A DNA stretch of 64,000 nucleotides from Tagaea sp. GTDB taxonomy: Bacteria > Pseudomonadota > Alphaproteobacteria > CACIAM-22H2. This document shows positions 25,631-44,918 of the stretch, one piece after another. The notes beneath the pieces were generated by a model. That model was given only the letters and a program-made list of their open reading frames with translations, searched no databases and had not been told where the DNA came from. Each line of letters begins with the position of its first letter. Within the stretch, counting starts at the first letter, position 1. A program made the translations under genes and the position numbers. The stretch spans positions 145-64,144 of the forward strand of contig JBILXZ010000001.1 in the NCBI GenBank assembly GCA_044378015.1. The letters are read 5' to 3'.

Positions 25631-25740
25631 GTCTGGAGATTGTGGAAACATAGAGAGAACATTTCGATTGAAGCGGTCGCATTCTCGGGCTTAGACTGCA
25701 GCCCTTCATTGCCAATATGCGCCTTGCGAAAGCCCCTGCC

Positions 25741-28171: not shown

Positions 28172-29899
28172 TTAGCTCTCGCGGCTGCCGGGGACCACGG
28201 TCAGGGCCGGGCGGCCGACGTCGAGGCCGATTTTGTCGAGGTCGAGATCGGCGAGCCACGGGCGCTCGACGCTCGGCGTGCCGAACAGATAACCCTGCAG
28301 GAGCTTCACGCCCTTGCGCGCGAGATGCTGGGCTTCCTGCGCGCTCTCCACGCACTCGGCCACCGTCTCGAGCCCGAAGCCGTCGGCGAGGCCCAGCAGC
28401 GTGCGGATGAAAAGCTGGTTGTCGACGTTGTTCGCCACGCCGCGCACGAAGCTGCCGTCGATCTTGACGCTGTCCACCGCGATCGCTTTGAGGTTGCGGA
28501 AGCTCGTGTAGCCCGCGCCGAAATCGTCGAGCGACACGCGGCACCCGAGTTCGCGCACCTGAGCCACGAACTTGGCCGTCTCGTCGATGTCCTGGATCGC
28601 CACCGTTTCGGTTATCTCGACCGTCAGGCGCTTGGCAAGATCGGGGCGCGTCTTGAGGGTGCCCGAGAGCGCCCGCAGCCACGAAGGATCGCCCGCCGTG
28701 AGGCCCGAGATGTTGATGGCAAGCCGCACGTCCGGCCAGCGCATGAGTTCGCCCATCGCCATTTCGAGCACGCGCCGATCGAGCAGCCGCATGAGGCCGG
28801 TCTGCTCGACGACCGGAATGAACGAGCCCGCGGGCGCTATCGTGCCGTCCATGCGCTGCAGCCGGATCAGACATTCGTAATGGTCCACGACGTAGGTCGT
28901 GGCGTCGACGATCGGCTGGAAGGCGAAGATCAGGCGCTCGTCCTTGAGGGCGGCCTGCACGTCCGAGGAAATCGCCACGAGGCGCTGATGCAGCTCGCGT
29001 TGCGCGGGGCTTGCCGAGAATATCGCGTAGCGATTGCGCCCGGCGCGCTTGGCCTCGTGCAGCGCGGATTCCGCGCGCGCCATCACCTCGACCGCCGAAG
29101 GACCTTGCTCGAGGAACAGCACCGCACCGGCGGACGCCGTCACGTGCAGCGGCCCGTCCGGCGTTTCGATGGGGGCACTGCGCACGGCCGTGAGCAGCCG
29201 GTCGGCGGCAAGGCCGATCTCGGATTCGGGGCACTGGGCGAGGACGAGGCCGAAACGGTCGCCGCCCGCGCGCCCGATCGTGTCGGAAGCGCGCAGGCTG
29301 CGCTCGAGGCGCTGGCCGATGCCGACCAGAAGCGCGTCGGCAGTCGACCAGCCGAACGCGTCGTTGATCGCCGAGAGATTGTCGACGCCGATCAGCAGGA
29401 ACGCGCCGGGCGCCTTGTAGCGAACCGCGTACTCGATCGCGTGGTCGAGCGATTCGCGCAGCCTCGAGGCGTTGAAATGCCCGGTCAGCGGATCGTAGTT
29501 GGCGAGATACTCCAGACGCGCTTCCTTTTCCTTGCGCGTCGTGATCGCGCGCAGCGTGCCGACGAGGCGCAAGGGTTTGCCGTCTTCGGCGAAGGTCGCG
29601 CGCCCGCGGTCGTGCACCCAGATCAGGTTGCCGCCGTCGCCGCGGATGCGGTAGTCGAGATCGTAGGCGATGCGGTCGACGAAATGGGCGGACAGCGCCT
29701 TGAGGCGCTGCGGCAGGTCTTCGGCGTAGACGCGGCTCTGGAATATCTGGCCCGAGTCCGGAAAATCGGCGCGGCCGCCGAACACGTTTTCCGCGCGGCC
29801 GTGCCAGGCGATCGTGTCGGCCGCGAGGTCCCACGCGTAGGCGGCATCGCCCGCCGCGTCGAGCGCGGATGCCGCAAAATCGCGAGTCGCGCCCGTCAT
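28172..29899 (-). CDS. PAS-GGDEF(degenerate)-EAL c-di-GMP phosphodiesterase-type signalling protein
   Basis: PAS region; GGDEF domain whose signature is degenerate (RAGGDRFGL); EAL domain with catalytic residues (ECLIRL, EITE, DDFGAGYTSF, KIDGSFV); start ATG 29899 overlaps the aminotransferase stop by 1 nt (TGATG). Confidence 0.85.
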   Translation of the reverse strand: MTGATRDFAASALDAAGDAAYAWDLAADTIAWHGRAENVFGGRADFPDSGQIFQSRVYAEDLPQRLKALSAHFVDRIAYDLDYRIRGDGGNLIWVHDRGRATFAEDGKPLRLVGTLRAITTRKEKEARLEYLANYDPLTGHFNASRLRESLDHAIEYAVRYKAPGAFLLIGVDNLSAINDAFGWSTADALLVGIGQRLERSLRASDTIGRAGGDRFGLVLAQCPESEIGLAADRLLTAVRSAPIETPDGPLHVTASAGAVLFLEQGPSAVEVMARAESALHEAKRAGRNRYAIFSASPAQRELHQRLVAISSDVQAALKDERLIFAFQPIVDATTYVVDHYECLIRLQRMDGTIAPAGSFIPVVEQTGLMRLLDRRVLEMAMGELMRWPDVRLAINISGLTAGDPSWLRALSGTLKTRPDLAKRLTVEITETVAIQDIDETAKFVAQVRELGCRVSLDDFGAGYTSFRNLKAIAVDSVKIDGSFVRGVANNVDNQLFIRTLLGLADGFGLETVAECVESAQEAQHLARKGVKLLQGYLFGTPSVERPWLADLDLDKIGLDVGRPALTVVPGSRES

Positions 29900-31230
29900 C
29901 ACGCGACCCGACGCAAGGCAGCCGACAGCATCTCGGCCATCCGGTCGATCTGCGGCTTTTCGACGATCAGCGGCGGCGACAGGGCGACGATGTCGCCCGT
30001 CGTGCGGATCAGCAGACCCGCTTCGAAACAGTCGACGAGCACGTCGTAGGCCCTGGTGCCGGGGGCTCCGGCACGCGGCTCGAGCTCGATGCCCGCCACC
30101 AAACCCAGATTGCGGATGTCGACGACGTGGCGCGTGCCTTTGAGGGCGTGCATCGTCGCCTCCCAATAGGGGGCGAGGTCGGCTGCGCGCGCGAACAGGC
30201 CTTCGTCGCGATAGACGTCGAGGGTCGCGATGCCGGCGGCGCAGGCGAGCGGATGGCCCGAGTAGGTGTAGCCGTGGAAAAACTCGATGGTGTTTTCAGG
30301 CCCCTGCATGAACGCGTCGTAGATCGCCTTGGTCGCGAACACGGCCCCCATCGGCACGGCGGCGTTGGTGATGCCTTTGGCGACCGTCATGAGGTCCGGC
30401 ATCACGGCGAAGCGTTCGGCCGCAAAGGCCGTGCCGAGGCGCCCGAAGCCCGTGATGACTTCGTCGAAGATCAAGAGAATGCCGTGCTTGCTGCAGATCG
30501 CGCGCAGCTTTTCGAGATAGCCTTTGGGCGGTATCAATACCCCGGTCGAGCCCGCGACCGGCTCGACGATCACGGCCGCGACGTTCGACGGATCGTGCAG
30601 GGCGAGGATGGCTTCGAGCCGGTCGGCGAGCTCCGCACCGTGTTCGGGCTGGCCCTTCGAATAGGCGTTGCGCACCGGGTCGTGCGTGTGCGGCAGATGG
30701 TCGACATAGGGCAATTGCAGCCCGAACTGCTTGCGGTTGGGCGAAATGCCGCCCACAGAGATGCCGCCGAACCCCACGCCGTGATAGCCGCGCTCGCGGC
30801 CGATGAAGCGCACGCGCTGGGATTCGCCGCGCGCGCGATGGTAGGCGAGGGCGATCTTGAGCGCGGTATCGACCGACTCGGAGCCCGAATTCGTGAAGAA
30901 AACCTGGTTGAGATCGCCCGGCAGCATCGCCTGCAGACGCGCCGCGAACTCGAACGACAGCGGATGGCCCATCTGGAAGCCGGGGGCGAAATCCATCGTT
31001 GCGGCCTGCTTTTGGATCGCTTCGACGATGGATTTGCGGCCGTGGCCCGCATTCACGCACCACAGGCCGGCCGTGCCGTCCAAAATCTGGCGATTGTCCG
31101 GCGTGTAGTAGTACATCCCTTCCGCGCGCGAAAGCAGTCGCGGTTTGCGCTTGAATTGCCGGTTGGCCGTGAACGGCATCCAAAGCGCTTCGAGGTTGTT
31201 GGGATCGACCGGCATAGAAGCGGCTGGCAT
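29899..31230 (-). CDS. class III (omega-amino acid/beta-alanine--pyruvate type) PLP aminotransferase
   Basis: PLP-lysine region (DEVITGFGRLG), YTYSGHP motif, length about 443 aa; start at MPAASMPV with AGGAG 10 nt upstream. Confidence 0.85.
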   Translation of the reverse strand: MPAASMPVDPNNLEALWMPFTANRQFKRKPRLLSRAEGMYYYTPDNRQILDGTAGLWCVNAGHGRKSIVEAIQKQAATMDFAPGFQMGHPLSFEFAARLQAMLPGDLNQVFFTNSGSESVDTALKIALAYHRARGESQRVRFIGRERGYHGVGFGGISVGGISPNRKQFGLQLPYVDHLPHTHDPVRNAYSKGQPEHGAELADRLEAILALHDPSNVAAVIVEPVAGSTGVLIPPKGYLEKLRAICSKHGILLIFDEVITGFGRLGTAFAAERFAVMPDLMTVAKGITNAAVPMGAVFATKAIYDAFMQGPENTIEFFHGYTYSGHPLACAAGIATLDVYRDEGLFARAADLAPYWEATMHALKGTRHVVDIRNLGLVAGIELEPRAGAPGTRAYDVLVDCFEAGLLIRTTGDIVALSPPLIVEKPQIDRMAEMLSAALRRVA

Positions 31231-31846: not shown

Positions 31847-33367
31847 ATGGCGTTTGCGACGATGTGGGAGCTTCTGCGGAACGGAGCCGACGGCAGCCCG
31901 GCTTTGGGCGCGCCCGAAACGGCGGCGTTGACCTTCAAGGATCTGCGCGCGCTTGCGGCAGACACGGTTGCCGCGCTCAACCGCATGGGCATCGGCCGCA
32001 ACGACCGGGTCGCGATCGTGCTGCCCAACGGGCCGGAAATGGCTGCGGCCTTTCTTTGCGTCGCCGCCGGGGCGACGACGGCCCCCTTGAACCCCGCCTA
32101 CCGGCAGGAGGAGTTCGAGTTCTACATCGCCGACCTCAAATCCAAAGCCGTGATCGTGCAGACGGGCGACGACACGCCCGCGCGCGCCGCCGCCGCCAAG
32201 CTCGGCGTGCCGCTGATCGAGTTGGCGCCGCAGCGCGATCTCGGTGCGGGCGCCTACAAGCTTTCCTCGAACCTCGCCGGCGCGGCCGCCGCACCGGGCT
32301 TTGCGGCCGCCGACGACGTGGCCCTCATTCTGCACACGTCGGGCACCACCTCGCGGCCGAAGATCGTGCCGCTGTCGCAGGCGAACATTTGCGCCTCGGC
32401 CCGGCATATCGGCGCCACGCTCGAGCTCAAGGGCCACGACCGCTGCCTCAACATCATGCCGCTGTTCCACATCCACGGGCTCATCGCGGCCGTGCTGTCG
32501 TCCTTGGCGGCCGGCGGCCAGACCGTGTGCACGCCGGGCTTCAACGCGCTCAAATTCTTCGCGTGGCTCGACGAGGCGGGACCCAGCTGGTACACGGCCG
32601 TGCCGACCATGCACCAGGCGATCCTCGCGCGCGCCGAGCGCAACAAGGAGAGCCTCGCAAAATCGAAGCTGCGCTTCATCCGCTCGTCTTCGGCCTCGCT
32701 GCCGCCGCAGGTGATGCAAGCCCTCGAAGACACGTTCGGCTGCCCCGTCGTCGAAAGCTACGGCATGACGGAAGCCGCCCACCAGATGGCCTCGAACCCG
32801 CTGCCGCCGCGCGCGCGCTTCGCGGGCTCGGTCGGCATCGCGGCGGGGCCCGAGGTGCGCGTGATGGACGAGGAAGGCAATCTCCTCGGCCCCAACACGC
32901 TCGGCGAAATCGTGATCCGAGGCCCCAACGTGACCAAGGGCTACGAAGCCAACCCCGACGCCAATCTCAAAGGCTTTGCGAATGGCTGGTTCCGCACCGG
33001 CGACCAGGGCACGCTCGACGACCAAGGCTATCTGCGCATCACCGGCCGCTTGAAGGAACTGATCAATCGCGGCGGCGAAAAAGTGAGCCCGCTCGAGGTC
33101 GATGAAGTGGTGATGGACCATCCGGCCGTGCAGCAGGTCGTGACGTTCGCGATCCCGCACGACAAGCTCGGCGAAGAGGTGGGGGCCGCCATCGTGCTGC
33201 GCGAAGGCCAGAGCGCGACCGAACGCGACATCCGCGACTTCGCCGCCAAGCGCCTCGCCGACTTCAAAGTGCCGCGCAAGGTCGTGTTCCTTGCCGAGAT
33301 CCCGAAGGGGGCGACCGGCAAGCTGCAGCGCATCGGCTTGGCAGAGAAGCTGGGGTTGGGCAAATGA
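31847..33367 (+). CDS. acyl-CoA synthetase of the AAE3/Pcs60 (oxalate--CoA ligase-like) family
   Basis: AMP-binding motifs LHTSGTTSRPKIV, MPLFHIHGL, YGMTEA, GWFRTGD, GGEKVSP closely follow Arabidopsis AAE3 / yeast Pcs60; AAAGGA SD 9 nt upstream. Confidence 0.8.
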   Translation: MAFATMWELLRNGADGSPALGAPETAALTFKDLRALAADTVAALNRMGIGRNDRVAIVLPNGPEMAAAFLCVAAGATTAPLNPAYRQEEFEFYIADLKSKAVIVQTGDDTPARAAAAKLGVPLIELAPQRDLGAGAYKLSSNLAGAAAAPGFAAADDVALILHTSGTTSRPKIVPLSQANICASARHIGATLELKGHDRCLNIMPLFHIHGLIAAVLSSLAAGGQTVCTPGFNALKFFAWLDEAGPSWYTAVPTMHQAILARAERNKESLAKSKLRFIRSSSASLPPQVMQALEDTFGCPVVESYGMTEAAHQMASNPLPPRARFAGSVGIAAGPEVRVMDEEGNLLGPNTLGEIVIRGPNVTKGYEANPDANLKGFANGWFRTGDQGTLDDQGYLRITGRLKELINRGGEKVSPLEVDEVVMDHPAVQQVVTFAIPHDKLGEEVGAAIVLREGQSATERDIRDFAAKRLADFKVPRKVVFLAEIPKGATGKLQRIGLAEKLGLGK

Positions 33368-34344
33368 GCCGCGTTCTGATTTTCGGCGCCGGGGCCATCG
33401 GCGGCTACATGGGCGTGATGATGGCGAAGGCAGGCGCCCGCGTGACGTTCTTCGCGCGCGGCGCGCACCTTGCGGCCATGAAGGAAAACGGCATCAAGCT
33501 GATTTCCGAGGGCGCCGAAACCGTGATCTGCGACGCGGTCTTCACCGACGATCCGGTCGAGGCGGGCCCGCAGGATTTCGTCGTGGTCGCCCTCAAGGCG
33601 CACGGGCTTGTTGCGGCAGCACCGCAGATCGCCAAGCTTCTCGCACCCGAAACCGCCATCGTCACGGCGATGAACGGCGTGCCCTACTGGTATTTCTACA
33701 AACATGGCGGCCCGCACGACGGGGCACGCCTCAAATCCGTCGATCCGGACGGCAAATTGTGGGACACGCTCGCCCCCGAACGCGCCATCGGCTGCATCGT
33801 CTACCCTGCCGCCAATATTCTTGCCCCCGGCGTCATCGAACACACCTACTCCAACCGCTTCGCGCTGGGCGAACCCGACGGCGCCAAATCGGCGCGCGCG
33901 GCCAAGCTCGGCGAGATCATGATCGCGGGCGGCCTCAAAGCGCCCGTGCGCCCGAAGATCCGCGACGACATGTGGGTGAAGCTGTGGGGCAATCTCAGCT
34001 TCAACCCAGTGTCGGCGCTGACGGGCGCGACCCTCGACGTGATCACGGGCGATCCCGAAACGCGCAGCGTGGCGCGCGCGATGATGCTGGAAGCGCAGGA
34101 AGTCGGCGAAGCGCTCGGCATCCGCTTCGGCATCGACGTCGAAAAGCGCATCGACGGTGCCGGCGAAGTGGGGGCGCACAAAACCTCGATGCTGCAGGAT
34201 CTCGAAGCCAAAAAGCCGATGGAAATCGACGCGCTTCTGGGGGCCGTCGTCGAGATGGGCGAACTCACGGGCCACGCCATGCCGATCTGCCGCACGGTGC
34301 TGGGCCTCGTGCGCCAGCGCGCGCGCGTGGCCGGCGTCTACTAG
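33364..34344 (+). CDS. PanE/ApbA-family 2-dehydropantoate 2-reductase homolog (candidate oxalyl-CoA reductase, PanE2-like)
   Basis: N-terminal Rossmann motif VLIFGAGAIGGYMG; ApbA C-terminal domain; ATG overlaps the ligase stop (ATGA). Confidence 0.75.
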   Translation: MSRVLIFGAGAIGGYMGVMMAKAGARVTFFARGAHLAAMKENGIKLISEGAETVICDAVFTDDPVEAGPQDFVVVALKAHGLVAAAPQIAKLLAPETAIVTAMNGVPYWYFYKHGGPHDGARLKSVDPDGKLWDTLAPERAIGCIVYPAANILAPGVIEHTYSNRFALGEPDGAKSARAAKLGEIMIAGGLKAPVRPKIRDDMWVKLWGNLSFNPVSALTGATLDVITGDPETRSVARAMMLEAQEVGEALGIRFGIDVEKRIDGAGEVGAHKTSMLQDLEAKKPMEIDALLGAVVEMGELTGHAMPICRTVLGLVRQRARVAGVY

Positions 34345-34352
34345 CCGCCGTC

Positions 34353-34553
34353 ATGGCCGTCGAATCGCCGTGCGTCAACGTCTGCAAGCTCGACGAAGCG
34401 CGCGTTTGCATCGGGTGCGGGCGCAGCGTGGCCGAAATCCGCGACTGGAAGGCGTCCGGCGACGGCGCCAAACGCCGCATCGTCGAGCGCATTCGCCGTC
34501 AGGGGTATCCGCGCCCCGACGCCCTTCGAGCGATCACAGAATCGCAATCCTAA
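34353..34553 (+). CDS. DUF1289 (YdhL-like) small Cys-rich protein
   Basis: SPCVNVCKLDEARVCIGCGRSVAEIRDW matches the DUF1289 Cys pattern. Confidence 0.6.
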   Translation: MAVESPCVNVCKLDEARVCIGCGRSVAEIRDWKASGDGAKRRIVERIRRQGYPRPDALRAITESQS

Positions 34554-34624
34554 CGTCATAGGATTGCCGTGCGATGGCGCTACGCCTCCGGGTGTCGATC
34601 ACTCTCGAAACCGGAGACTCGCGC

Positions 34625-35980
34625 ATGCGCCAGACACTCGCCGCCGCCTCGATCCTCGCCCTGATTGCGGGCGCTGCCCTCGCCGACCAGAAATTTCCGG
34701 CGACCCTCGCGGGCCATGCGCTGCTCCCCGCCAATACGATGGTGCCCGCCCCCGCCGACGCGCCGGACATGCTGAAGACGTCCGGCAAATTCGCCGGTCC
34801 CGGCAACCTGCGCAACGAGCGCCTGGCGAGCGTCCCGGGCACGACAGGCACGCCCGCCGCAAGCCGCCCGACGGGCCTCTCCTTCCCGTTCCAGGGCCAG
34901 CCCGTGCAGGGCTTCTCAGGCATCAAGCGCATCGGCGACGGCACCTACTGGACGCTCACCGACAACGGCTTCGGCAGCAAGGTGAATTCGCCGGACGCGA
35001 TGCTGATGTTCCACCGCATCCGCCCCGACTTCCAGAGCGGCCGCGTCGAGCGCCTCGAAACGATTTTCCTGCACGATCCCGACAAGCTGCTGCCGTTCCC
35101 GATCGCGGCGGAAGCCACGGCCAAGCGCTACCTCACCGGGGCGGACCTCGATCTCGAATCGATCCAGCCGATCGGCGACTCCTTCTATTTCGCCGAGGAG
35201 TTCGGGCCGTATCTCGTCCGCACCGACCGCCAGGGCAAGGTCACCGGCTTCTGGCCGACCGAACTCGACGGCAAGCCCGTGCGCTCGCCGGACAACGCCT
35301 CGAACCGCACGCCGGGCGTGCCGGGCGGCGCTTTCGAGTTCAACCTGCCGCGTTCGAAGGGCTACGAAGGCATGGCCGCCTCGCCCGACGGCAAGTTCCT
35401 CTACGCGATGCTCGAAGGACCGGTCTATGCCGACGGCAAGCCCGAAACCGTCGACGGGCGCGAATTCCTGCGCGTGATCGAATTCGACGTCGCCGCATCC
35501 AAATGGACCGGCCGCAGCTTCCGCTACGTACTCGAAGCCAACGGCCTTGCGATCGGCGACTTCAACATGATCGACGCCAACCGCGCGCTCGTGATCGAAC
35601 GCGACAACGGCGAAGGCGATCCGGCGCGCGCCTGCCCGCAGGGGCAGAACGCGCCCACGTGCTTCGCCACGCCCGCACGCCTCAAGCGCGTATACGCGGT
35701 GAGCTTCGAGGGCGTCGCGTCGGGCGCTTCGTTGCGCAAGCTCGGCCATATCGATCTCATGGATATCGCCGACCCGCGCAATCTCGCCCGCCAGGGTGGG
35801 GCGAACGGCAAGTTCACCTTCCCGTTCTTCACGATCGAGAATGTGGACGTGGTCGATGCCGAGCACATCGTCGTGGGCAACGACAACAACCTGCCCTTCT
35901 CGGCCGGCCGTTCGCTCGACAAAGCCGACGACAACGAAGTGATCCTGCTGCGCGTGCCCGAACTGCTGAACGCGCGCTAA
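34625..35980 (+). CDS. secreted esterase-like-activity-of-phytase (PF13449-like) family protein
   Basis: Signal peptide MRQTLAAASILALIAGAALA; DNGFGS and repeated beta-propeller-like blocks typical of the phytase-like esterase family. Confidence 0.65.
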   Translation: MRQTLAAASILALIAGAALADQKFPATLAGHALLPANTMVPAPADAPDMLKTSGKFAGPGNLRNERLASVPGTTGTPAASRPTGLSFPFQGQPVQGFSGIKRIGDGTYWTLTDNGFGSKVNSPDAMLMFHRIRPDFQSGRVERLETIFLHDPDKLLPFPIAAEATAKRYLTGADLDLESIQPIGDSFYFAEEFGPYLVRTDRQGKVTGFWPTELDGKPVRSPDNASNRTPGVPGGAFEFNLPRSKGYEGMAASPDGKFLYAMLEGPVYADGKPETVDGREFLRVIEFDVAASKWTGRSFRYVLEANGLAIGDFNMIDANRALVIERDNGEGDPARACPQGQNAPTCFATPARLKRVYAVSFEGVASGASLRKLGHIDLMDIADPRNLARQGGANGKFTFPFFTIENVDVVDAEHIVVGNDNNLPFSAGRSLDKADDNEVILLRVPELLNAR

Positions 35981-35990
35981 CCGCCCGCCC

Positions 35991-38225
35991 TCAACGGCTC
36001 TCGCGCGGCGTGAAGCTGCGCGCAGAGCCGTACTGGGGCGGCCAGGGCATCTTGTAGCCTTGCTCGTAGGCGGCGTGGCGCGTCCAGTAGGGATCGTAGA
36101 GATGGGCGCGCGCGAGCACGCATAGATCGGCGCGCCCCGCCGTCAGGATCGTGTTGCAGTCCGCCCAAGACGAGATGTTGCCGACCGTCATCGTCGGCAC
36201 GTCGGCCCCGAAGCGCACGCGGTCGGAAAACGGCGTTTGGAAAAGGCGCCCGTAGACGGGCTGGTCGTCGGCAACCGTCTGGCCTGCCGACACGTCGACG
36301 ATGTCCGCGCCGTGCGCCTTCAAGCGTTTGGCGATTTCGACCGCATCTTCGGCCGTGTTGCCGTCCTCTTTCCAGTCGGTCGCCGATATGCGCACCGAAA
36401 TCGGCCGCTCGGCGGGCCAAGCGCTGCGCACCGCGTCGAACACTTCGAGCGGGAAGCGCATGCGGCCGTCGATGTCGCAGCCGTATTCGTCGGCACGCAC
36501 GTTCGTGAGCGGCGACAGGAAACTCGCCAAAAGATAGCCGTGCGCCATATGCACTTCGACGAGGTCGAAACCCGCTTCGAGGGCGTAGCGCGTCGCCCGC
36601 ACGAAATCGGCCTTGACCGCATCCATGTCGGCGCGGTCCATCGCCTTGGGCGTCTGGCTGTCTTTTTTGTAGGGCAGTGCGGAGGCCGACAGGAGCGGCC
36701 AATTGCCGTCCGCCAAGGGTCGGTCGATGCCCTCCCAGGCTTTGCGCGTCGAGCCCTTGCGGCCCGCGTGCGCCAGCTGCACGCCGATCTTGGCCGGCGA
36801 ATGCGCATGCACGAAATCGACGGTGCGCTTCCATGCCGCGACGTGTTCGGGCGCATAGAGGCCAGTGCAACCCGGCGTGATCCGGCCGTCGGCGCTCACA
36901 TCCGTCATCTCGGTCATCACAAGCCCGGCCCCGCCCACGGCGCGGCTGCCCAGATGAACGAGATGCCAGTCGTTGGCCAGCCCGTCTTCGGCCGAATACT
37001 GGCACATGGGCGAAACGACGATGCGGTTGGCGAGCGTGAGGCCGCGCAGCTTGAACGGCACGAACATCGGCGGCGTGTCGGCGGGGGCGCCGAAACGCGC
37101 GGCAAAGGCCGCATCCACCTTGGCGACGAGGGCGGCGTCGCGCAGCTTCAGATTCGCGTGCGTGATGCGCATCGAGCGCGTGAGCATCGACATCGCGAAA
37201 TCGAGCGGCGCCAGCTTGCCCGCATAGCGCTCGGTCTCCTCGAACCATTCGAGGCTGATCTGCGCGGCGCGCTGGATCGCTTCGGTCTGTGGCCGACGTT
37301 CGGCCTCGTAGGCGGCAAGCGCCTGCGGCACGCTTTTGTGGCGCTCGACGGCGTCGGCAAGCGCGATCGCGTCTTCCATCGCAAGCTTTGTGCCCGAGCC
37401 GATCGAGAAATGCGCGGTGTGCGCGGCGTCGCCCATCAGCACGACGTTGCCGAACGACCAATTGGCGCAGCGCACGGTCGGGAAAGTGCGCCAGATCGAA
37501 CGGTTGGCGACGAGGCGATGGCCGCCGAGCTCTTCGGCGAAGAGGTTTTCGCAGAAGGCCAGCGTCTCGGCCTCCCCGGCCGCGTCGAGGCCCGCCTTTT
37601 TCCAGGTCTCTTCGGTGCACTCGACGATGAAGGTCGAGTTCGCCGCGTCGTACTGGTAGGCGTGCACGCGGAACAGGCCGGTCGCGTGCGGTTTGAAATG
37701 GAACGTGAAGGCCGGATGCGGGCGCGTGGTGCCGAGCCAAACGAATTTGTTGCGCCGCCAGTCGAGCGCGGGCAGCAGCCGGTCGGCGTATTTCGCGCGG
37801 ATGCCGGAATTGACGCCGTCGGCCGCGAGGATCAAGTCGGCGTCCGGAAAATCTCCGGGGTCTTTGGCTTCCGTCTCGAACGCGACGCGCACGCCGAGCG
37901 CCTTGGCGCGGCGCTGCAATATCTCGAGCAGCTTCACGCGCGCGAGGCCGGAAAAACCGTGCCCTGCCGAGGTCACGACCGTGCCGCCGTAGTGGATGTC
38001 GATGTCCGTCCAGTGCGCGAAGGCGCGCGCGATCTCGGCGTAGCTTTCGGGATCGGCGGCGGCGAAATTGCCGAGCGTTTCGTCCGAGAACACGACGCCG
38101 AAGCCGAAGGTGTCGTGCGGCCGATTGCGCTCGACGACGAGAATGTCGCGCGACGGATCGGCTTTTTTGGCCAGGATGGCGAAATAGAGGCCCGCCGGCC
38201 CGCCGCCGATGCTGACGATCTTCAT
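35991..38225 (-). CDS. bifunctional FAD-dependent aromatic monooxygenase / Old-Yellow-Enzyme (FMN) reductase fusion (anthraniloyl-CoA monooxygenase/reductase and salicylyl-CoA 5-hydroxylase family)
   Basis: N-terminal [19 protein letters not shown] motif, DG and GD motifs ([14 protein letters not shown]; [25 protein letters not shown]); C-terminal OYE TIM barrel ([11 protein letters not shown]...[24 protein letters not shown]); start at Met-60 of the 803-aa track ORF. Confidence 0.85.
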
Positions 38226-38271
38226 GGCCCGTGTCTCCCGGTCGCTGCGCCAAATCGAAATTACTTTAGAC

Positions 38272-39063
38272 CTAAAATATCGTCGGCGGAAGCCCCCCGC
38301 GCTGCTGGAGAGCGGCGATGCCGTCCCACAGCAGCTTGACGCCCGTGAGCAGCAGGAAGACGTTGCACCAGAAAAAGAACGGCTTTTCGGGCACGCGCGC
38401 ATGCAGCCAGATGCCGAGCGCCATGCCGAGCGGCGCGAGCGGCAGCAGCACGAGGCTCGTGGCCAGATTCTCGAACGAAAACAGGCCGAGATAGACGAAC
38501 GGCCCGAGCTTCATGGCGTTGACGGCCGCGAAGAAGACGACCGTCGTCGCCACGAACGCGGTCTTGTCGAGCCGCAGCGGCAGCAGATAGACCTGCAAGG
38601 GCGGCCCGCCGGCGTTGGCGACGAAACTCGTGACGCCCGAAACGGCCGACCAGAAAACGCCCTTTGGCCAGCTCGGCCCTCGCGCGGGGGCCGCGCGCCC
38701 GAGGGCCGCCACGAGCCAATCGTTGGCGGTGAAAACCACGGCCACGGCGCCGACGATCACGCGGACCCAGGCCTCGTCGAGACGTTCGAAGGCGAGATAG
38801 CCGAGCACCGTGCCGAGCGCGGCCCCAACCATCAGGAACGCCATGTGCCCGCGCGCGTATTGGGTGCGGTACTTCCACAGGCCGATCGCGTCCATGACCA
38901 TCAGCAGCGGCAGCATGATGGCGGCCGCCTGCGGCACGGGGATGGCGAGCGCCATCAGCGGCACGCCCATCGAACCCATGCCCGACCCGAACCCGCCTTT
39001 GGAAACGCCGACGACCAGAAAGGCCGGCACGGCTAGCGCGTAGAAGAACCAGTCGGTCAGCAC
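38272..39063 (-). CDS. TauE/SafE (DUF81) family anion exporter
   Basis: Repeated GxGGG-type motifs ([18 protein letters not shown]...; [16 protein letters not shown]); GTG start 4 nt after the Anbu stop. Confidence 0.8.
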
Positions 39064-39067
39064 GAAC

Positions 39068-39799
39068 TCAGACTTTCCAGTCCGGATCGGGCACGGTCTG
39101 GAACACCGAACGCAAGCCTTCGGACCAGCGGCGGCGAATGTCGGAGAGATAGACGTCTTTTTCGTCGAGCCTGCGGCGCACGGCCAAGCGGCATTCGTCG
39201 CGTCGCACGATCGCGATGTCGACCGGTAGGCCGACCGACACGTTCGAGCGCAGCGTGGAATCCATCGAGATCAGCGCGCATTTTGCCGCTTCGTTGAGGG
39301 TCGTCTTGCCCATCACGACGCGGTCCAGGATCGGTTTTCCGTATTTCGTTTCGCCGATCTGGAAATAGGGCGTCTCGGCAGAAGCTTCGATGAAATTGCC
39401 GGCCGAGTAGATCTGGAACAGGCGCAAGCGGCGGCCCTTGAGCTGGCCGCCCAGAATGAGCGAGATCGAGAACTCGGTTCCCTGCTCCTTGAGCCGGGCC
39501 GCGTCGAGATCGTAGATCTCGCGCACCGCCCGGCCCGCGAGCCGGGCCGCCTCGAACATCGAGGGCACGTTGGCGAGCGTCTCGGTGCGGTCCTTGCCCA
39601 TGCCCTCGGTCAGTAGATTGACGACCGACTGGGAGATCGCGAGATTGCCCGCGGTCAGCAGCACGAGGCAGCGCTCGCCCGGATTTTCCCAGACATGCAT
39701 CTTGTTGAAGACCGCGACGTGGTCCACGCCCGCGTGCGTGCGCGAATCCGAACACAGAACGAGCCCGTCTTCGAGCAGCAATCCAACCCCGTATGTCAT
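39068..39799 (-). CDS. Anbu (ancestral beta-subunit) proteasome homolog
   Basis: MTYGVGLLLEDGLVLCSDSRTHAGVDHVAVFNKMHVWENPGERCLVLLTAGNLA: Thr2 Ntn-nucleophile arrangement and Anbu-specific block; about 243 aa. Confidence 0.8.
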   Translation of the reverse strand: MTYGVGLLLEDGLVLCSDSRTHAGVDHVAVFNKMHVWENPGERCLVLLTAGNLAISQSVVNLLTEGMGKDRTETLANVPSMFEAARLAGRAVREIYDLDAARLKEQGTEFSISLILGGQLKGRRLRLFQIYSAGNFIEASAETPYFQIGETKYGKPILDRVVMGKTTLNEAAKCALISMDSTLRSNVSVGLPVDIAIVRRDECRLAVRRRLDEKDVYLSDIRRRWSEGLRSVFQTVPDPDWKV

Positions 39800-39841
39800 T
39801 GCGGAAACTCTCCCCTGGCGCCCTCGAAAGGGCGGATGTCG

Positions 39842-40789
39842 CTAGCGCGCGAGCCCGAAATCGTCGGCGATGGCCGTGCCGATGCGGGCATTGGTCTCGA
39901 CGATTTCGGTCAGGAACTCGTGCAGACCCTGATTGAAGATGTTGTCGATCGAATCGAAGCGAAGACGGTTGTAGGTCTGGTCGGCGAGACGCGCCGACAC
40001 GTAGTCGCGTCCGAACATTTCGCGCAGCTCGTCGAGCAGGCGCGTGAGTTCGCGCAGACACGAGCGCAGCGAGCGCGGCATGTCCTCGCGCAGGATCAGC
40101 AGCTCGGCCACGCGCCGCGGCACGATCGCGTCGCGATAGAGGCGCCGGTAGGCCTGGAAGGCCGACACCGAACGCAGCAGCGCGCCCCACTGGTAGTAGT
40201 CGACCGCGCCGCCCACGTCGCGCGTGGAGGGCAGCAGCACGTGGTATTTGACGTCGAGCAGGCGGGCGGTCGCGTCCGCGCGCTCGAGGAAGGTGCCGAC
40301 GCGCACGAACCGGTAGGCCGCATCGCGCGTCATCGTGCCGTAGCCGACGCCGCGGAACAGATGGCTGCGTTCCTTGACCCAGTCGAAAAACGCGCGCAGG
40401 CCCATCGCCTCGATCTTTGGGTAGTCGAGGGCGCGCATCTCGAGCCAGGTCCCGTTCAGCGCTTCCCACATTTCGGTGGTGATCTGCGTGCGCATCGCGC
40501 GCGCGTTTTCGCGCGCCATCCACAGGGCCGACCGGATCGACGAGGGATTGTCGGCCGCAAGGGCCAGAAACTCGATGACGTTGCGCGCGTCGATTTTCTT
40601 GCCCGTCTCCTTGAAGGGCGCCTCGCAGCCCGCCACGACAAGGGCCGGCTCCCACTGCGTCTGCTGGGAATAGGCATCCGTCGCGGTCAGCGACATGCGG
40701 TAGGAGACGTCGAGCAGGCGCGCCGTGTTTTCGGCGCGCTCCATGTAGCGGGACATCCAGTAGAGCGAATCGGCGGCGCGCGACAGCAT
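39842..40789 (-). CDS. alpha-E (DUF403) domain protein
   Basis: MLSRAADSLYWMSRYMERAENTARLLDV N-terminal signature of the alpha-E family; GAGGA SD overlaps the upstream stop. Confidence 0.85.
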   Translation of the reverse strand: MLSRAADSLYWMSRYMERAENTARLLDVSYRMSLTATDAYSQQTQWEPALVVAGCEAPFKETGKKIDARNVIEFLALAADNPSSIRSALWMARENARAMRTQITTEMWEALNGTWLEMRALDYPKIEAMGLRAFFDWVKERSHLFRGVGYGTMTRDAAYRFVRVGTFLERADATARLLDVKYHVLLPSTRDVGGAVDYYQWGALLRSVSAFQAYRRLYRDAIVPRRVAELLILREDMPRSLRSCLRELTRLLDELREMFGRDYVSARLADQTYNRLRFDSIDNIFNQGLHEFLTEIVETNARIGTAIADDFGLAR

Positions 40790-40791
40790 GG

Positions 40792-42192
40792 CTAATCCTC
40801 CAGCACCCAGGTGTCTTTGGTGCCGCCGCCTTGCGAGGAATTGACGACGAGCGAACCTGCGCGCAACGCCACGCGCGTGAGGCCGCCGGGCACGAGCTTC
40901 ACGTCCTTGCCGACCAGCAGATAGGGCCTGAGATCGACGTGGCGCGGGGCCACGCCCTCGTCGACGAAAGTGGGGCATGTCGACAGCGCCAGCGTGGGCT
41001 GGGCGATGTAGTTGTCGGGATCGGCGAGGATGCGCAGGCGGAAATCCTCGATCTCGGCCTTGGTCGATTTCGGGCCCACGAGCATGCCGTAGCCGCCCGA
41101 GCCGTGCACTTCCTTCACCACCAGCTCGGCCAGGTGCTCGAGGGCGTATTTGAGGTCGTCCTTGTTGCGCAGCGTGTAGGTCGGCACGTTGGCGAGCTTG
41201 GGCTCTTCGCCCAGATAGAAGCGCACCATCTCCGGCACGTAAGGATAGACCGATTTGTCGTCGGCAACGCCCGTGCCCACCGCGTTGGCAAGGTTGACGT
41301 TGCCGCGGCGGTAGGCGTCGAACAGGCCGCGCACGCCGAGAACGCTGTCGGGATTGAAGGCGGCGGGATCGATGAAGGCGTCGTCCAGGCGCCGATAGAT
41401 CGTGTCGACGCGCTTGGGGCCCGCGACCGTGCGCATGTAGACGAAACCGTCGTCCACGAACATGTCCTGGCCTTCGACCAGCTCCACGCCCATCTGCTCG
41501 GCGAGGAAAACGTGCTCGAAATAGGCCGAATTGTAGGCCCCCGGCGTCATCACGACGACCGTGGGCTCGTCCTTGTTGAGGCAGTTTTCCGGCGGCAGCG
41601 AGCGCAGCGACTTGAGGAGTTCGTCGGGATAGTGGCCCACGGGACGCACGCGGTTGGCGCTGAACAGCTCGGGAAAAAGCCGCATCATGGCTTCGCGGTT
41701 CTCGAGCATGTAGGACACGCCCGACGGCGTGCGCGCGTTGTCTTCGAGCACGTAGAACTGGTTCTCGGACACGCGCACCACGTCGATGCCCGCGATGTGC
41801 GTGTAGACGTTGCCCGGCAGCGCCACGCCGATCATCTCGGGCCGGTACTGCGAATTGGCGACGACCAGCTCCCGCGGGATCTTGCCCGCGCGCACGATGT
41901 TCATGCCGTGATAGACGTCGTAGAGAAAAGCGTTGAGCGCGCGAACGCGCTGGACGAGCCCTTCGGACAGGGCGTGCCATTCGGCGCCCGTAATCACGCG
42001 CGGGATGAGATCGAACGGAATAAGCCGCTCGGGATCGCCGCCCTCGCCGTAGACGGCGAAGGTAATGCCGAGGCGGCGGAAAAGCAGATCGGCCTCGCGG
42101 CGCTTGGCGTCCGTCTGGCTTGCGGGCATGCGCTCGAGCCATTCCGCCAATTCGGCGTAGGCCGCGCGAACCGCACCGTCCGCCGCGCTCAT
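40792..42192 (-). CDS. circularly permuted ATP-grasp type 2 (DUF404/DUF407) amidoligase
   Basis: Conserved CP-ATP-grasp blocks (NAFLYDVYHG, ARTPSGVSYMLENR, VKEVHGSGGYGMLVGP); start placed at internal ATG 42192, because the track ORF begins with TTG at 42324. Confidence 0.85.
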   Translation of the reverse strand: MSAADGAVRAAYAELAEWLERMPASQTDAKRREADLLFRRLGITFAVYGEGGDPERLIPFDLIPRVITGAEWHALSEGLVQRVRALNAFLYDVYHGMNIVRAGKIPRELVVANSQYRPEMIGVALPGNVYTHIAGIDVVRVSENQFYVLEDNARTPSGVSYMLENREAMMRLFPELFSANRVRPVGHYPDELLKSLRSLPPENCLNKDEPTVVVMTPGAYNSAYFEHVFLAEQMGVELVEGQDMFVDDGFVYMRTVAGPKRVDTIYRRLDDAFIDPAAFNPDSVLGVRGLFDAYRRGNVNLANAVGTGVADDKSVYPYVPEMVRFYLGEEPKLANVPTYTLRNKDDLKYALEHLAELVVKEVHGSGGYGMLVGPKSTKAEIEDFRLRILADPDNYIAQPTLALSTCPTFVDEGVAPRHVDLRPYLLVGKDVKLVPGGLTRVALRAGSLVVNSSQGGGTKDTWVLED

Positions 42193-42425
42193 CTCGTCGA
42201 AAGCGGCCCCTGCCGAGGACTGCGTCTGCCTCACCCCATCCTCCTTGGCTTGCCCACCCGCAACAAGCGCGGCCGGTCGCTTCCCGTCGCCTTGGCATGC
42301 AACGCCCGGACCAGACTCTGGCAATTCGTACAGGGCTTTGCAACCAATCGAATCGCGGGCAATGGAATCGCCGAAAGGGATGAGCTAGGGTCCCGGCTTC
42401 GCGATTTGCCACAAAAGAGGTCGTT

Positions 42426-43541
42426 TTGGATTCGTTTTCGCAGGCAGCTCTCGGGGCAGCAGTCGGCTACGCCGTCGCCGGGCGGCGTTTGGGCCGCCGC
42501 GCCATCGCCTTCGGGGCGCTTGCAGGCACCGTTCCCGATCTCGACAATGTCGCCTTGCTGCTGACCGACGGCTGGGCCGAGTGGCGACATCACCGCGGCC
42601 TCACGCACGGGCTTTTCTTCGCGCCCGTGATGGGGCCGCTGCTGGGCTGGATCGCATGGCGCATGCACAACCGCACCCGGCCCTTCGAACCGGCGGGCAG
42701 CCACGATGCCGCCCCTGCCTGGATGGCGCTGTTTTTCTTCGGGCTCATAACCCACCCGCTGCTCGATTTTTTCACGATCTACGGAACCCAGCTTTTGGCG
42801 CCGTTCGACGCGACCCGTTTTGCGGCACCCGGGCTCGGCATCATCGATCCCGGCTACACGCTTCCGTTGCTGGCGGCATTGATCGTGGCCCTTTGGCGGC
42901 CGCGCGCGGGCCTCTCGTTCCTCGCCGTCTTCGCCGCTCTTTTTGCGACGAGCGTCTATCTGTTCTACGGCCTGTCGAACAACGCCAAGGTCGAGGCGCG
43001 CGCGCGCGCGCAGCTTGCCGCCGAAGCGGTCGAACCGGCCGACGTGCGCGTCTACACGACGATCTTCCAGCCGTGGCTGCGCCGCATCGTCGTCGACGAG
43101 CCCGAAGGTGCGCGCGTCGGGTTCGCCACGGCGGACCAGAAAGACGCGATCGCGTGGCTGTGCTTCGCACGCCCCCGCCATCCGGCGATCCAGGCCGCTT
43201 TGGCCACGCCCGAGGGCAAGCTGTTCGCCTGGTTTGCGATGGGCGAAGTGTGGCCGAGCCTTGCTGCGGCCGACGACGGCTCGACCGTGGTGCGGCTCAC
43301 CGACCGTCGCTACGGCGTGCCGGGGACGACCGCCCAAGGCTGGTGGGGCATCGAGATGCGCATCGCCGCCGACGGCAGCGTGGCCGAAGCGCCGCGCCGC
43401 ATCGATCTGCCGCGCGGCGCCGACGGCGACGCGATCGGCCAGCTTTTCGCGGCGGCGCGCGGGCAGGCGACCGCGCTTTTTGCGCACGCCGCAAGCGCGC
43501 AGGACGCAGCCGAGAAGTGCCGCGCGTCGCGCGCCGGCTAG
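42426..43541 (+). CDS. membrane-bound metal-dependent hydrolase (YdjM/DUF457-like) with a C-terminal extension
   Basis: N-terminal MDSFSQAALGAAVGYAV...PDLD...HRGLTHGL pattern of DUF457; 371 aa, longer than E. coli YdjM. Confidence 0.55.
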   Translation: MDSFSQAALGAAVGYAVAGRRLGRRAIAFGALAGTVPDLDNVALLLTDGWAEWRHHRGLTHGLFFAPVMGPLLGWIAWRMHNRTRPFEPAGSHDAAPAWMALFFFGLITHPLLDFFTIYGTQLLAPFDATRFAAPGLGIIDPGYTLPLLAALIVALWRPRAGLSFLAVFAALFATSVYLFYGLSNNAKVEARARAQLAAEAVEPADVRVYTTIFQPWLRRIVVDEPEGARVGFATADQKDAIAWLCFARPRHPAIQAALATPEGKLFAWFAMGEVWPSLAAADDGSTVVRLTDRRYGVPGTTAQGWWGIEMRIAADGSVAEAPRRIDLPRGADGDAIGQLFAAARGQATALFAHAASAQDAAEKCRASRAG

Positions 43542-43837
43542 ACGTATTTGTCGCCGCGCAGCACCGACACGTCGCCGAGCCACGCGATGGTGGCAAAGCG
43601 CGGGAAATAATGTTCGGCAAGCCGGGCCATGATTTTCTCGGCCACGGATTCGCTGACGACCGCATCGATGCGCAAATTCAGTTCGCCCACCCGTCCCATG
43701 CGCTTGCCGCGCGAACCCTGGCCGTGCGCTTCGACTATCGTGTAGCCGGAGGCGCCCAGCCGCATCATGTCTTCGGCGATCTTGGGGGCCACGACCTCTT
43801 CGGCGACGACCGTGATGAGTTTCAGCGCCACAGTCAT
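43538..43837 (-). CDS. sbtB: P-II-like signalling protein SbtB
   Basis: 99-aa GlnB-fold protein (KLITVVAEEVVAPKIAEDMMRLGASGYTIVEAHGQG) 1 nt downstream of sbtA. Confidence 0.7.
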   Translation of the reverse strand: MTVALKLITVVAEEVVAPKIAEDMMRLGASGYTIVEAHGQGSRGKRMGRVGELNLRIDAVVSESVAEKIMARLAEHYFPRFATIAWLGDVSVLRGDKYV

Positions 43838-44807: not shown

Positions 44808-44918
44808 CGGGCACCAATCGGAAAGCGCGAAATTACAGCAACGATACGCGGTATTTGCGGACAAGCTGGGCGCGATAATGGCTTGGCTTTCGGCATTCGG
44901 ATAGCCATATTCGCACGC

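Follow-up and report, generated by a model that had tools for sequence, protein, structure and literature searches.

2-Aminobenzoyl-CoA monooxygenase/reductase (ACMR, EC 1.14.13.40) of Azoarcus evansii joins an FAD monooxygenase and an Old Yellow Enzyme (OYE) in one polypeptide of the PRK08255/NCBIfam family, and the aryl-CoA ligase and beta-oxidation-type genes of the Azoarcus pathway are clustered (PMC4539516). Salicylyl-CoA 5-hydroxylase SdgC of Streptomyces sp. WA46, the source of the family's NCBI name, belongs to a pathway leading from salicylate through salicylyl-CoA to gentisyl-CoA (PMC4600096; PMC13215587). Here we describe a gene of this architecture in a 64,000-nucleotide stretch of Tagaea sp. 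DNA (hereafter the window), where it follows an Anbu operon on the same strand (Table 1). Iyer in 2009 and Valas & Bourne in 2008 reportedly viewed the Anbu operon as a peptide-ligase/peptidase system. As described, the operon holds only ATP-grasp, alpha-E and transglutaminase genes beside Anbu, and neither TauE nor a flavoenzyme is part of it (PMC5666114).

Table 1. Positions of the fusion gene, its domains, upstream motifs and neighboring genes in the window.
Feature	Position	Strand	Evidence
Oxalate--CoA-ligase-like AMP-binding enzyme	31847..33367	+	PDB 5ie0/6qjz/8aff, E 1e-129 to 1e-111
PanE/ApbA-family 2-dehydropantoate-reductase-like gene	33364..34344	+	Pfam, NCBIfam NF005089
DUF1289 small Cys-rich protein, convergent to fusion	34353..34553	+	Translation MAVESPCVNVCKLDEARVCIGCGRS...; relatives annotated PF06945
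Phytase-like esterase gene, convergent	34574..35980	+	Pfam PF13449
Fusion gene, FAD monooxygenase + FMN OYE, 744 aa	35991..38225	-	ORF list and translation (ATG 38225, end 35991), Pfam, NCBIfam, AF2
C-terminal FMN domain, aa 387-744, thermophilic-like/YqjM-class OYE	35994..37067	-	PDB matches, Foldseek, motifs
N-terminal class A FAD monooxygenase domain, ~aa 1-380, VioD-like fold	37086..38225	-	PDB sequence matches, Foldseek, motifs
Palindromic operator-like motif TTTTAGGTCTAAAGTA, core TTTAG-GT-CTAAA	38262..38277	-	Uniqueness, comparative alignment
-35-like box, TTCCGC	38286..38291	-	Anchored alignment; weak match in window
TauE/SafE (TSUP) membrane transporter gene, between Anbu and fusion	38272..39063	-	Pfam PF01925, E 6e-28
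Anbu, proteasome beta-like peptidase	39068..39799	-	Pfam Proteasome, E 3.7e-5
Alpha-E domain protein	39842..40795	-	Pfam PF04168, E 1.6e-100
Circularly permuted ATP-grasp type 2 protein, 480 aa, GTG 42234	40792..42234	-	Pfam PF14403/PF04174; start chosen to agree with 480-aa relatives

The fusion gene is real and intact. Its ATG is preceded by a GGGAGA ribosome-binding site, its GC3 of 0.84 is typical for real genes in this window (GC 67%), and the reading frame continues across the junction through a conserved linker. Homologous loci with the same single-ORF architecture number more than 160 and come from many phyla, and database proteins with an equivalent fusion (740-790 aa) run into the thousands. 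Thus the two halves do form one gene, and an artefact of frame or annotation, a condition under which the initial annotation would have been abandoned, is ruled out by the unbroken ORF and the wide retention of the fusion. Pfam placed FAD_binding_3 (PF01494) in the N-terminal half and Oxidored_FMN (PF00724) at residues 387-720 (E 3e-66), and the motifs initially quoted for a class A FAD monooxygenase fused to an OYE barrel were all recovered: GGGPAGL at 7-13, DG at 136-137 within AADGVNS (134-140) and GDAAH at 265-269. Together with the OYE signatures SPMCQY (405-410) and HMAHGY (559-564), which supply Cys408, His559, His562 and Tyr564, they make up an intact set of cofactor and catalytic motifs (GxGxxG, DG and GD; OYE Cys and His-x-x-His-Gly-Tyr). 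The catalytic roles of the four OYE residues are presumably those of their counterparts in YqjM, and we take the FAD-domain motif residues to act as in class A monooxygenases.

The closest solved structures are VioD for the N-terminal half and the thermophilic-like OYEs YqjM, TsER, CaOYE and XenA for the C-terminal half, all of them single-domain proteins that have the FAD fingerprints or the Cys/His/His/Tyr OYE residues in common with the window protein. In sequence searches of the PDB, the FAD half matched VioD 3c4a (E 5.8e-54) as well as 8gqr, and the FMN half matched 8pun, 5ocs and 7o0t (E ~1e-95). AlphaFold2 gave a confident two-domain model (pLDDT 91.1, pTM 0.89), in which Foldseek aligned the FAD half to VioD at a TM of 0.88-0.89 (VioD-normalised) and the FMN half to CaOYE and TsER at a TM of 0.96 and an rmsd of 1.3 A. 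Neither sequence nor Foldseek searches of the PDB returned a full-length structural homologue, the best query-normalised TM being 0.46.

The family assignment proposed from the architecture, that of ACMR and SdgC, was upheld by the NCBIfam equivalog NF006101, "bifunctional salicylyl-CoA 5-hydroxylase/oxidoreductase", which the window protein matched over residues 1-738 with 1155.1 bits (cutoff 1078); a member from a Ralstonia gene cluster reached 1446 bits. Close homologues carry the JGI label 'anthraniloyl-CoA monooxygenase'. The likeness to Azoarcus ACMR is one of architecture and family model, and we know of no close relative of the fusion that has been biochemically characterised. In place of the characterised Azoarcus and Streptomyces sequences, we used aryl-CoA cluster context as the functional anchor in a sample of about 170 homologous loci. 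This canonical context, consisting of an SDR, a PRK08258-type enoyl-CoA hydratase, an acyl-CoA dehydrogenase, RidA and a benzoate-CoA-ligase-family ligase, often with MarR, was found in about 71 of 168 loci (~40%), the Ralstonia megaplasmid being one example. It describes the gene neighborhood in part of the family and is no criterion of sequence. The 71 cluster-anchored proteins served as the reference for conservation. The window protein falls in a clade of six Tagaea-like loci (76-100% identity, neighbor-joining bootstrap 50/50; hereafter the window clade), which retains all 173 columns conserved in at least 95% of the reference proteins and 314 of the 320 columns at a threshold of 80%, with only conservative changes. 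Canonical control subclades retained 292-317 of ~326 columns, so that the window clade does equally well. The clade has no fixed residues specific to it. Neofunctionalisation was therefore rejected, since neither lost invariant residues nor fixed novelties were found, and the retention of all family-invariant positions argues against a new substrate class. Four cluster-anchored proteins (L012, L013, L100 and L103; 66-68% identity) grouped with the window clade, whose deeper placement in the tree is weak (22/50 bootstraps). Judged by sequence, the fusion is a bona fide and ordinary member of the ACMR/salicylyl-CoA 5-hydroxylase family.

The genomic context is less ordinary. Homologues at 54-68% identity cluster with aryl-CoA ligase and beta-oxidation-type genes, as in the Azoarcus pathway; the window gene, unlike Azoarcus ACMR, is without them and neighbors Anbu, TauE and oxalate genes instead. 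Similarly, the window protein passes the model named after SdgC, yet the window holds neither an sdgA/B-type ligase nor a gentisate dioxygenase, and the Streptomyces homologues in the sample share only 55-57% identity with it and sit on a distant branch. The comparison is sharpest with the Ralstonia solanacearum megaplasmid, where a fusion with 57.8% identity over 99% of the window protein heads a full catabolic operon (fusion, SDR, MarR, enoyl-CoA hydratase, acyl-CoA dehydrogenase, AMP ligase, thioesterase and RidA), whereas the window fusion stands alone. At E < 1e-3, we found no homologues of the aryl-CoA ligase, hydratase, acyl-CoA dehydrogenase, SDR or RidA anywhere in the 64 kb, in agreement with the initial claim that no cognate ligase lies near the fusion, and none of the six window-clade loci has aryl-CoA ligase or beta-oxidation-type partners within 8-10 kb. 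The one nearby ligase, initially read as oxalate-type, proved to be just that: it scored 435 bits against oxalate--CoA ligase 5ie0 and 218 bits against the next class. Its candidacy as the cognate aryl-CoA ligase was ruled out, with oxalate--CoA ligases the nearest by far and only 26% identity to the benzoate-CoA-ligase-family ligase of canonical clusters.

Upstream of the fusion, we found a palindrome, TATTTTAG-GT-CTAAAGTA, located 37 nt before the ATG and containing a perfect copy of the core. Its generalised form is TATTTTAG-NN-CTAAAATA and its core form TTTAG-NN-CTAAA; as a family-associated feature it was defined in this analysis and not taken from the literature. The palindrome overlaps a -10-like TAAAGT (38263-38268) as well as the stop codon of TauE (38272-38274). 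It occurs once in the window, where 0.01 matches with 3 or fewer mismatches would be expected, and is invariant in six related loci despite diverging flanks. Across the family, 23 of 157 loci carry the core in the 150 nt before the fusion start, compared with ~0.28 expected, an enrichment of about 80-fold, and the carriers include canonical-cluster fusions of Ralstonia, Pandoraea, Caldimonas, Sulfuritalea, Bradyrhizobium and Phenylobacterium. In the Ralstonia megaplasmid the form TTTA(C/G)-NN-CTAAA stands ~55 nt before the fusion start. The -35-like box lies 17 nt upstream of the -10-like hexamer and reads TTGCGG or TTGACC in relatives, and anchored alignment of motif-bearing loci showed CTTGNN at a fixed distance. 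This promoter-like region was recognised by comparative alignment only; a consensus promoter and terminator scan of 35500-42800 gave nothing useful and did not call the -35-like box. The palindrome may thus be an operator typical for the family and shared by clustered members and by those lacking such a cluster (hereafter orphans), which would offer a simple route to the regulon and its regulator in complete genomes. MarR was considered as this regulator and set aside: a MarR gene is within reach in 24 of 71 canonical loci and in only 5 of the 9 canonical loci that carry the motif, and the sole MarR-like ORF of the window is a MarR-GNAT fusion 34 kb away. A search for riboswitches and known RNAs found none near the fusion, only a chrB-b motif 12 kb off.

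We consider it reasonably likely that the gene encodes a separately regulated aryl-CoA hydroxylase/reductase, with its partner genes at other genomic sites. The N-terminal FAD domain, with NAD(P)H and O2, would hydroxylate an ortho-substituted benzoyl-CoA-type thioester para to the substituent, and the C-terminal YqjM-class FMN domain would reduce the resulting activated dienone or enone with NADH. The aryl-CoA would come from a ligase encoded at another site. In the Tagaea-like alphaproteobacterium, the fusion may have been separated from the ligase, SDR, enoyl-CoA hydratase, acyl-CoA dehydrogenase, RidA and MarR genes and have come to stand downstream of the Anbu-TauE string through lineage-specific synteny. 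Because the gene keeps a promoter-like region of its own together with the family palindrome, it is most likely turned on by the regulator of its own pathway.

A second reading, which we hold to be unlikely, joins the fusion to TauE (TSUP) and DUF1289 in a separate module, for instance one in which an imported or exported aromatic anion is hydroxylated and reduced; its substrate need not be a CoA ester made by a dedicated ligase. TauE and/or DUF1289 occur near the fusion throughout a clade of 11 loci (48/50 bootstraps), even though the orientation changes: in the window clade TauE precedes the fusion and shares its strand, and in L005, L088, L091 and L127 it follows the fusion and is convergent to it. 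None of the loci of this clade has CoA-pathway genes. An iterative HMM detected DUF1289 near the fusion both in the window clade and in L005. Of the 62 loci that reach 64.5% identity, 11 have TauE close to the fusion, with orientation varying and other genes inserted. On the other hand, the inserted genes between TauE and the fusion are unrelated ones in L009 (RecQ) and L172 (MFS and TetR), the flanking DUF2125, nadD-like, rsfS and rlmH genes are syntenic as well, so that the TauE association looks inherited rather than selected as a unit, and no other locus, orphan or canonical, has TauE or DUF1289. The catalytic residues of the fusion are, moreover, the same as those in enzymes from CoA clusters.

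Orphan members are common. Among relatives at 65-70% identity many are orphans as well, which points to an old orphan state that may go with another physiological role. It seems quite improbable that the window gene belongs to a large and old orphan ACMR branch with a role other than anthranilate or salicylate catabolism, acting for example together with TauE/DUF1289 on an aromatic compound that is imported or endogenous or, in Tagaea, on a product of the transglutaminase-less Anbu/ATP-grasp system. Such a branch would span 65-100% identity and comprise Tagaea-like alphaproteobacteria and many soil-metagenome lineages, all without dedicated CoA ligase or beta-oxidation partners. In a search for conserved neighbors of the other orphan loci, clustering of ORFs gave heterogeneous genes only, namely M20 peptidase, Uma2, GNAT, FAD monooxygenase and unannotated small ORFs. 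A substantial share of the proteins automatically named "salicylyl-CoA 5-hydroxylase" or "anthraniloyl-CoA monooxygenase" has no local CoA-pathway partner, which makes pathway calls from the fusion gene alone unsafe.

The initial annotation had taken the fusion for the last gene of the Anbu operon and had suggested the ATP-grasp product as a possible substrate. The arrangement itself was partly borne out. ATP-grasp, alpha-E, Anbu, TauE and the fusion follow each other on one strand with gaps of -4, 42, 4 and 46 nt, yet TauE intervenes, so that the fusion does not stand directly after Anbu. The locus is also carried by Tagaea-like assemblies such as GCA_051861425.1, GCA_006365015.1 and the JBGAKN01 MAG. 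ATP-grasp, alpha-E and Anbu are present, the Anbu protein being 40-55% identical to annotated 'proteasome-type protease' genes of ATP-grasp/alpha-E operons, but transglutaminase was found neither in the operon nor in the rest of the window. TauE and the flavoenzyme are extra genes, which the other Anbu operons inspected do not have. That the fusion functionally belongs to this operon as its last gene, modifying a peptide or amino-acid conjugate made by ATP-grasp and alpha-E, appears very improbable to us, although the co-directional order with short gaps is kept in all six loci down to 76% identity and the missing transglutaminase makes the operon atypical. The scan predicted no terminator between the fusion and TauE/Anbu, so that read-through co-transcription is possible. 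Against this reading, the co-occurrence with Anbu, once checked, turned out to be confined to the six loci of one narrow clade among about 170; the sister clade and all other homologues have no Anbu within 8-10 kb of the fusion. The Anbu operons of Ralstonia, Paracoccus and Azospirillum are without the fusion, and those of Ralstonia and Paracoccus end in unrelated genes. Ralstonia has both systems unlinked, with the Anbu operon, including transglutaminase, elsewhere in the genome and the fusion in its CoA cluster at a distance of ~0.9 Mb on the same type of replicon. Nor does the published gene list of the operon extend to a flavoenzyme, and the promoter- or operator-like region of the fusion is common to loci without Anbu. 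Functional membership of the operon was not supported by these comparisons, nor was the ATP-grasp product as substrate, which the narrow adjacency, the intervening TauE and the unchanged family-invariant residues all speak against. The fusion probably does not belong to the Anbu system, and its position is best explained by lineage-specific gene order; the adjacency therefore gives no handle on the Anbu substrate and adds little to Anbu biology.

Hardly credible is a tie to the adjacent oxalate or glyoxylate genes, in which the fusion would act on the CoA ester of a small acid or serve a related redox function, since it is not obvious what a class A aromatic hydroxylase and ene-reductase would do with C2 acids, the oxalate genes are convergent to the fusion and not operonic with it, and L009, L127, L152 and L172 of the same clade have none in their full flanks. 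In favor of the tie, every window-clade locus has the ligase and PanE pair convergent to the fusion, the pair recurs 5-6 kb from the fusion in L056, which is very divergent, frc/oxc oxalate genes lie 6-8 kb from the fusion in L005, and glcDEF is present at 56279-60304 of the window. In view of the literature on M. extorquens PanE2, we take the PanE-like gene to be a candidate oxalyl-CoA/glyoxylate-type reductase. The phytase-like esterase gene, which does not occupy the corresponding position in L006, L008 and L171, stops 10 nt from the stop of the fusion in the window.

The two-flavin gene is a single intact ORF on the minus strand, running from an in-frame ATG at 38225, preceded by a GGGAGA ribosome-binding site, to 35991 and encoding 744 aa. 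Its codon-position GC pattern (GC3 0.84) is the one shown by genuine genes at the window's 67% GC. All the N-terminal FAD monooxygenase motifs named in the initial annotation (GGGPAGL, DG, GDAAH) were found, and the NCBIfam equivalog NF006101 (PRK08255, "bifunctional salicylyl-CoA 5-hydroxylase/oxidoreductase") matched residues 1-738 with 1155 bits, exceeding its cutoff of 1078 bits. Among solved structures, the C-terminal half matched thermophilic-like OYEs (E about 1e-95) and the N-terminal half VioD (E 6e-54); each structure matched one half and no solved chain spanning both was found. The AlphaFold2 model was confident (pLDDT 91.1, pTM 0.89) and superposed on CaOYE/TsER with TM 0.96 and on VioD with TM 0.88-0.89. 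The ORF, Pfam domains, NF006101, motifs and model together establish the fusion as real rather than an artefact, and it belongs to an enzyme family that is known and widely annotated, as had been correctly recognised.

Coordinates of features in the window and, for protein features, residues of the fusion
Feature	Position	Strand	Remark
CP ATP-grasp	40792-42234	-	first in gene order toward fusion
alpha-E	39842-40795	-	
Anbu	39068-39799	-	
TauE/SafE-family transporter	38272-39063	-	between Anbu and fusion
Palindrome TATTTTAG-GT-CTAAAGTA	38262-38277	-	37 nt before fusion ATG, overlaps TauE stop codon
Fusion	35991-38225	-	last in order ATP-grasp, alpha-E, Anbu, TauE, fusion
FAD_binding_3	N-terminal half of fusion		Pfam
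Oxidored_FMN	residues 387-720		Pfam
GGGPAGL	residues 7-13		motif
AADGVNS	residues 134-140		motif, holds DG
GDAAH	residues 265-269		motif
SPMCQY	residues 405-410		YqjM-type OYE signature
HMAHGY	residues 559-564		YqjM-type OYE signature
AMP-binding ligase	31847-33367	+	convergent to fusion
PanE-like reductase	33364-34344	+	convergent to fusion
Small DUF1289 gene	34353-34553	+	convergent to fusion
Phytase-like gene	34574-35980	+	convergent to fusion
MarR-GNAT ORF	1492-2433	+	MarR-type HTH + GNAT acetyltransferase
Class II ribonucleotide reductase	25717-28167	+	B12-type, C-terminal TSCPD domain
PAS-GGDEF-EAL protein gene	28172-30166	-	
P-II-like gene	43538-43837	-	
CitMHS_2 transporter genes, tandem	about 44900-46322, 46353-47759	+	
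Chromate-transporter-family gene	48066-49913	-	
chrB-b cis-regulatory RNA	50368-50425	-	Rfam
glcDEF-like glycolate oxidase genes	56279-60304	-	

Homologues are numerous: one search gave at least 8000 proteins at E <= 1e-20, and a second gave 3616 representatives (50% identity level) at E <= 1e-30. We compared 80 genomic and 80 metagenomic loci with their flanks, plus several retrieved by exact-protein look-up, and scored neighbours with the window proteins and those of an annotated Ralstonia cluster. The best-matching genome locus came from a Tagaea sp. MAG (83% identity), which makes the source organism Tagaea-like, within the Rhodospirillales. In about 71 loci, from Burkholderiales, Rhizobiales, Gemmatimonadota, Acidobacteriota, Streptomyces and others, the fusion is accompanied by genes for an SDR, a PRK08258-type enoyl-CoA hydratase, an acyl-CoA dehydrogenase, RidA and a benzoate-CoA-ligase-family ligase, often also a MarR. 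RidA is an enamine/imine deaminase, and its frequency in these canonical clusters would fit an amino-substituted intermediate. The same gene set has been described for aerobic 2-aminobenzoate degradation, which proceeds via the CoA ester and then beta-oxidation-like steps (PMC4539516; PMC3534580).

No homologues of these canonical-cluster genes were found in the 64 kb of the window. Many soil-metagenome relatives at 65-70% identity were likewise without partner genes within 8-10 kb, as were members from Sorangium (L017/L060), Myxococcota and Planctomycetota; such loci include L089-L131 and others from metagenomes and L173 from Methylomirabilota. Neighbours of such orphan fusions are heterogeneous. 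The orphan-rich branch (65-70% identity to the window fusion) is intermixed with the cluster-anchored L012, L013, L100 and L103 (66-68% identity), and deeper branching of the tree is weak (22/50 bootstraps). The missing local ligase is real and common to a large orphan branch. A large share of the proteins that automatic annotation names 'anthraniloyl-CoA monooxygenase' or 'salicylyl-CoA 5-hydroxylase' lack CoA-ligase/beta-oxidation genes within 8-10 kb, and pathway calls from the fusion gene alone deserve caution.

The ATP-grasp, alpha-E, Anbu, TauE and fusion genes are separated, in order, by -4, 42, 4 and 46 nt; terminator prediction gave none within this string. The same order was found in L001, L003, L006, L008 and L171. 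Together with the window these loci (76-100% identity, DUF1289/PanE/ligase block convergent in all) form one clade in 50/50 NJ bootstraps. In the sister group (L005, L009, L088, L091, L127, L152; about 70% identity), TauE and/or DUF1289 lie nearby and no Anbu was found near the fusion; clade and sister group, 11 loci together, were recovered in 48/50 bootstraps. A RecQ gene lies between TauE and fusion in L009, an MFS and a TetR gene in L172; the wider flanks (DUF2125, nadD-like, rsfS, rlmH) are syntenic. We read the TauE/fusion neighbourhood, from gene order, as probably inherited rather than a functional unit. Anbu operons of Ralstonia and Paracoccus run ATP-grasp-alpha-E-transglutaminase-Anbu, then unrelated genes, whereas that of the Tagaea-like clade (39068-42234, minus strand, in the window) comprises ATP-grasp, alpha-E and Anbu without the transglutaminase that lies between alpha-E and Anbu in the other two; no transglutaminase gene was found in this operon or anywhere in the 64-kb window. 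Azospirillum has a solitary Anbu, and the Ralstonia fusion sits in a CoA cluster, apart from the Anbu operon. The operon as published contains no flavoenzyme (PMC5666114). Co-occurrence with Anbu loci, which the initial annotation had proposed to examine, did not extend to Ralstonia, Paracoccus or Azospirillum, whose Anbu loci have no adjoining fusion. Judged by these arrangements, the Anbu link of the fusion is positional and lineage-specific.

Alignment of the TauE-fusion spacer across six clade members revealed an invariant AT-rich block amid diverged sequence. This block is the palindrome upstream of the fusion. It is single-copy in the window, where 0.01 copies would be expected with up to 3 mismatches allowed. 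When no more than one arm mismatch was allowed, its core TTTAG-NN-CTAAA gave 30 sites across the 2.53 Mb of loci; 23 of the 30 lay within 150 nt upstream of a fusion start, and they fall in 23 of the 157 loci that could be tested (about 0.28 expected). Most other sites were intergenic in canonical loci; in Rhizobium L072 one separates the ligase gene from the divergently oriented fusion, and in L077 one precedes the hydratase gene. Among the 23 loci with a site before the fusion are orphans that do not belong to the Anbu clade (L005, L011, L091, L113, L118, L120, L122, L127) and canonical clusters of Ralstonia, Pandoraea, Caldimonas, Sulfuritalea, Bradyrhizobium, Phenylobacterium and a Burkholderiaceae MAG. 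The palindrome is conserved ahead of ACMR-family genes, orphan and clustered, in Alphaproteobacteria, Betaproteobacteria and soil lineages without assignment. The form TATTTTAG-NN-CTAAA(A/G)TA was seen 5' of the fusion in the window, L005, L007, L011, L045-L047, L057, L072, L077, L079, L082, L091, L118, L120, L122 and L127. To our knowledge it has not been described in the literature.

When the loci are aligned on the palindrome, its right arm coincides with a -10-like TAAAGT/TAAAAT, and a CTTGNN box lies about 17 nt further upstream (TTGACC in L046, TTGCGG in L171, a weaker TTCCGC in the window). This predicted arrangement matches that of a sigma-70-type promoter under repressor control, and the palindrome is probably the operator of a pathway regulator. 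We infer that the fusion would be driven from a regulated promoter of its own, similar to those of family members in general, and would therefore not simply be the tail of the Anbu operon. The initial annotation had placed it there; this promoter-like region with the family palindrome and the occurrence of Anbu adjacency in a single six-locus clade argue against that placement. Read-through from the Anbu genes may occur. The cluster MarR is a candidate regulator, but lies within reach in only 5/9 motif-bearing canonical loci. The sole MarR-like sequence in the window, the MarR-GNAT ORF, is 34 kb away from the fusion and was rejected as an orthologue of that cluster MarR (58 bits vs about 200). 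In L172 (7334-10418; 73% identical) the palindrome is missing, a TetR-family gene lies 62 nt upstream of the fusion and the MFS transporter is divergent, which suggests a regulator swap. The conserved, putative palindromic operator and the caution on single-gene pathway calls are by-products worth keeping.

A changed active site found no backing. The 11-locus clade keeps 173/173 columns conserved at >=95% in 71 cluster-anchored proteins and, at the 80% threshold, 314/320, the six differences being conservative; canonical control subclades keep 292-317 of about 326. We found no residue that is fixed in this clade but uncommon among canonical proteins, and the clade's branches are not elongated. 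The best-supported reading, by analogy, is the family's own mechanism: the FAD domain would hydroxylate an aryl-CoA and the FMN domain would then reduce the product with NADH. The gene would answer to a pathway-type operator, and its partner genes are presumed to lie at other genomic sites.

The earlier guess that the convergent ligase is oxalate-specific gains support, since among solved structures it scores best with oxalate--CoA ligases (435 bits vs 218 for the next class). Taken together with the PanE-like reductase, the ligase resembles part of a module for oxalate -> oxalyl-CoA -> glyoxylate, the reductase being presumably a partner by likeness to Methylorubrum PanE2. Oxalate/glyoxylate genes recur around the fusion, in three distinct configurations: the ligase/PanE-like pair in the window clade (window 31847-34553, plus strand), such a pair in the divergent L056 (17590-20096), and frc/oxc/FTHFS in L005 (15566-21544). 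The window additionally carries the glcDEF-like genes. This recurrence may be coincidence or inherited gene order. An alternative, PanE2-type reductase is mentioned in a review (PMC13409138).

The remaining window is housekeeping chromosome (carAB, greA, argH, fliG, B12-type RNR, glcDEF). The PAS-GGDEF-EAL gene adjoins the ribonucleotide reductase gene on the opposite strand. The P-II-like gene adjoins a region that encodes an Sbt_1 (SbtA-like) transporter in the 92%-identical L001, followed by the two CitMHS_2 genes. Finally, the chromate-transporter-family gene is preceded by the chrB-b RNA motif (52.6 bits, against a gathering score of 36.5).
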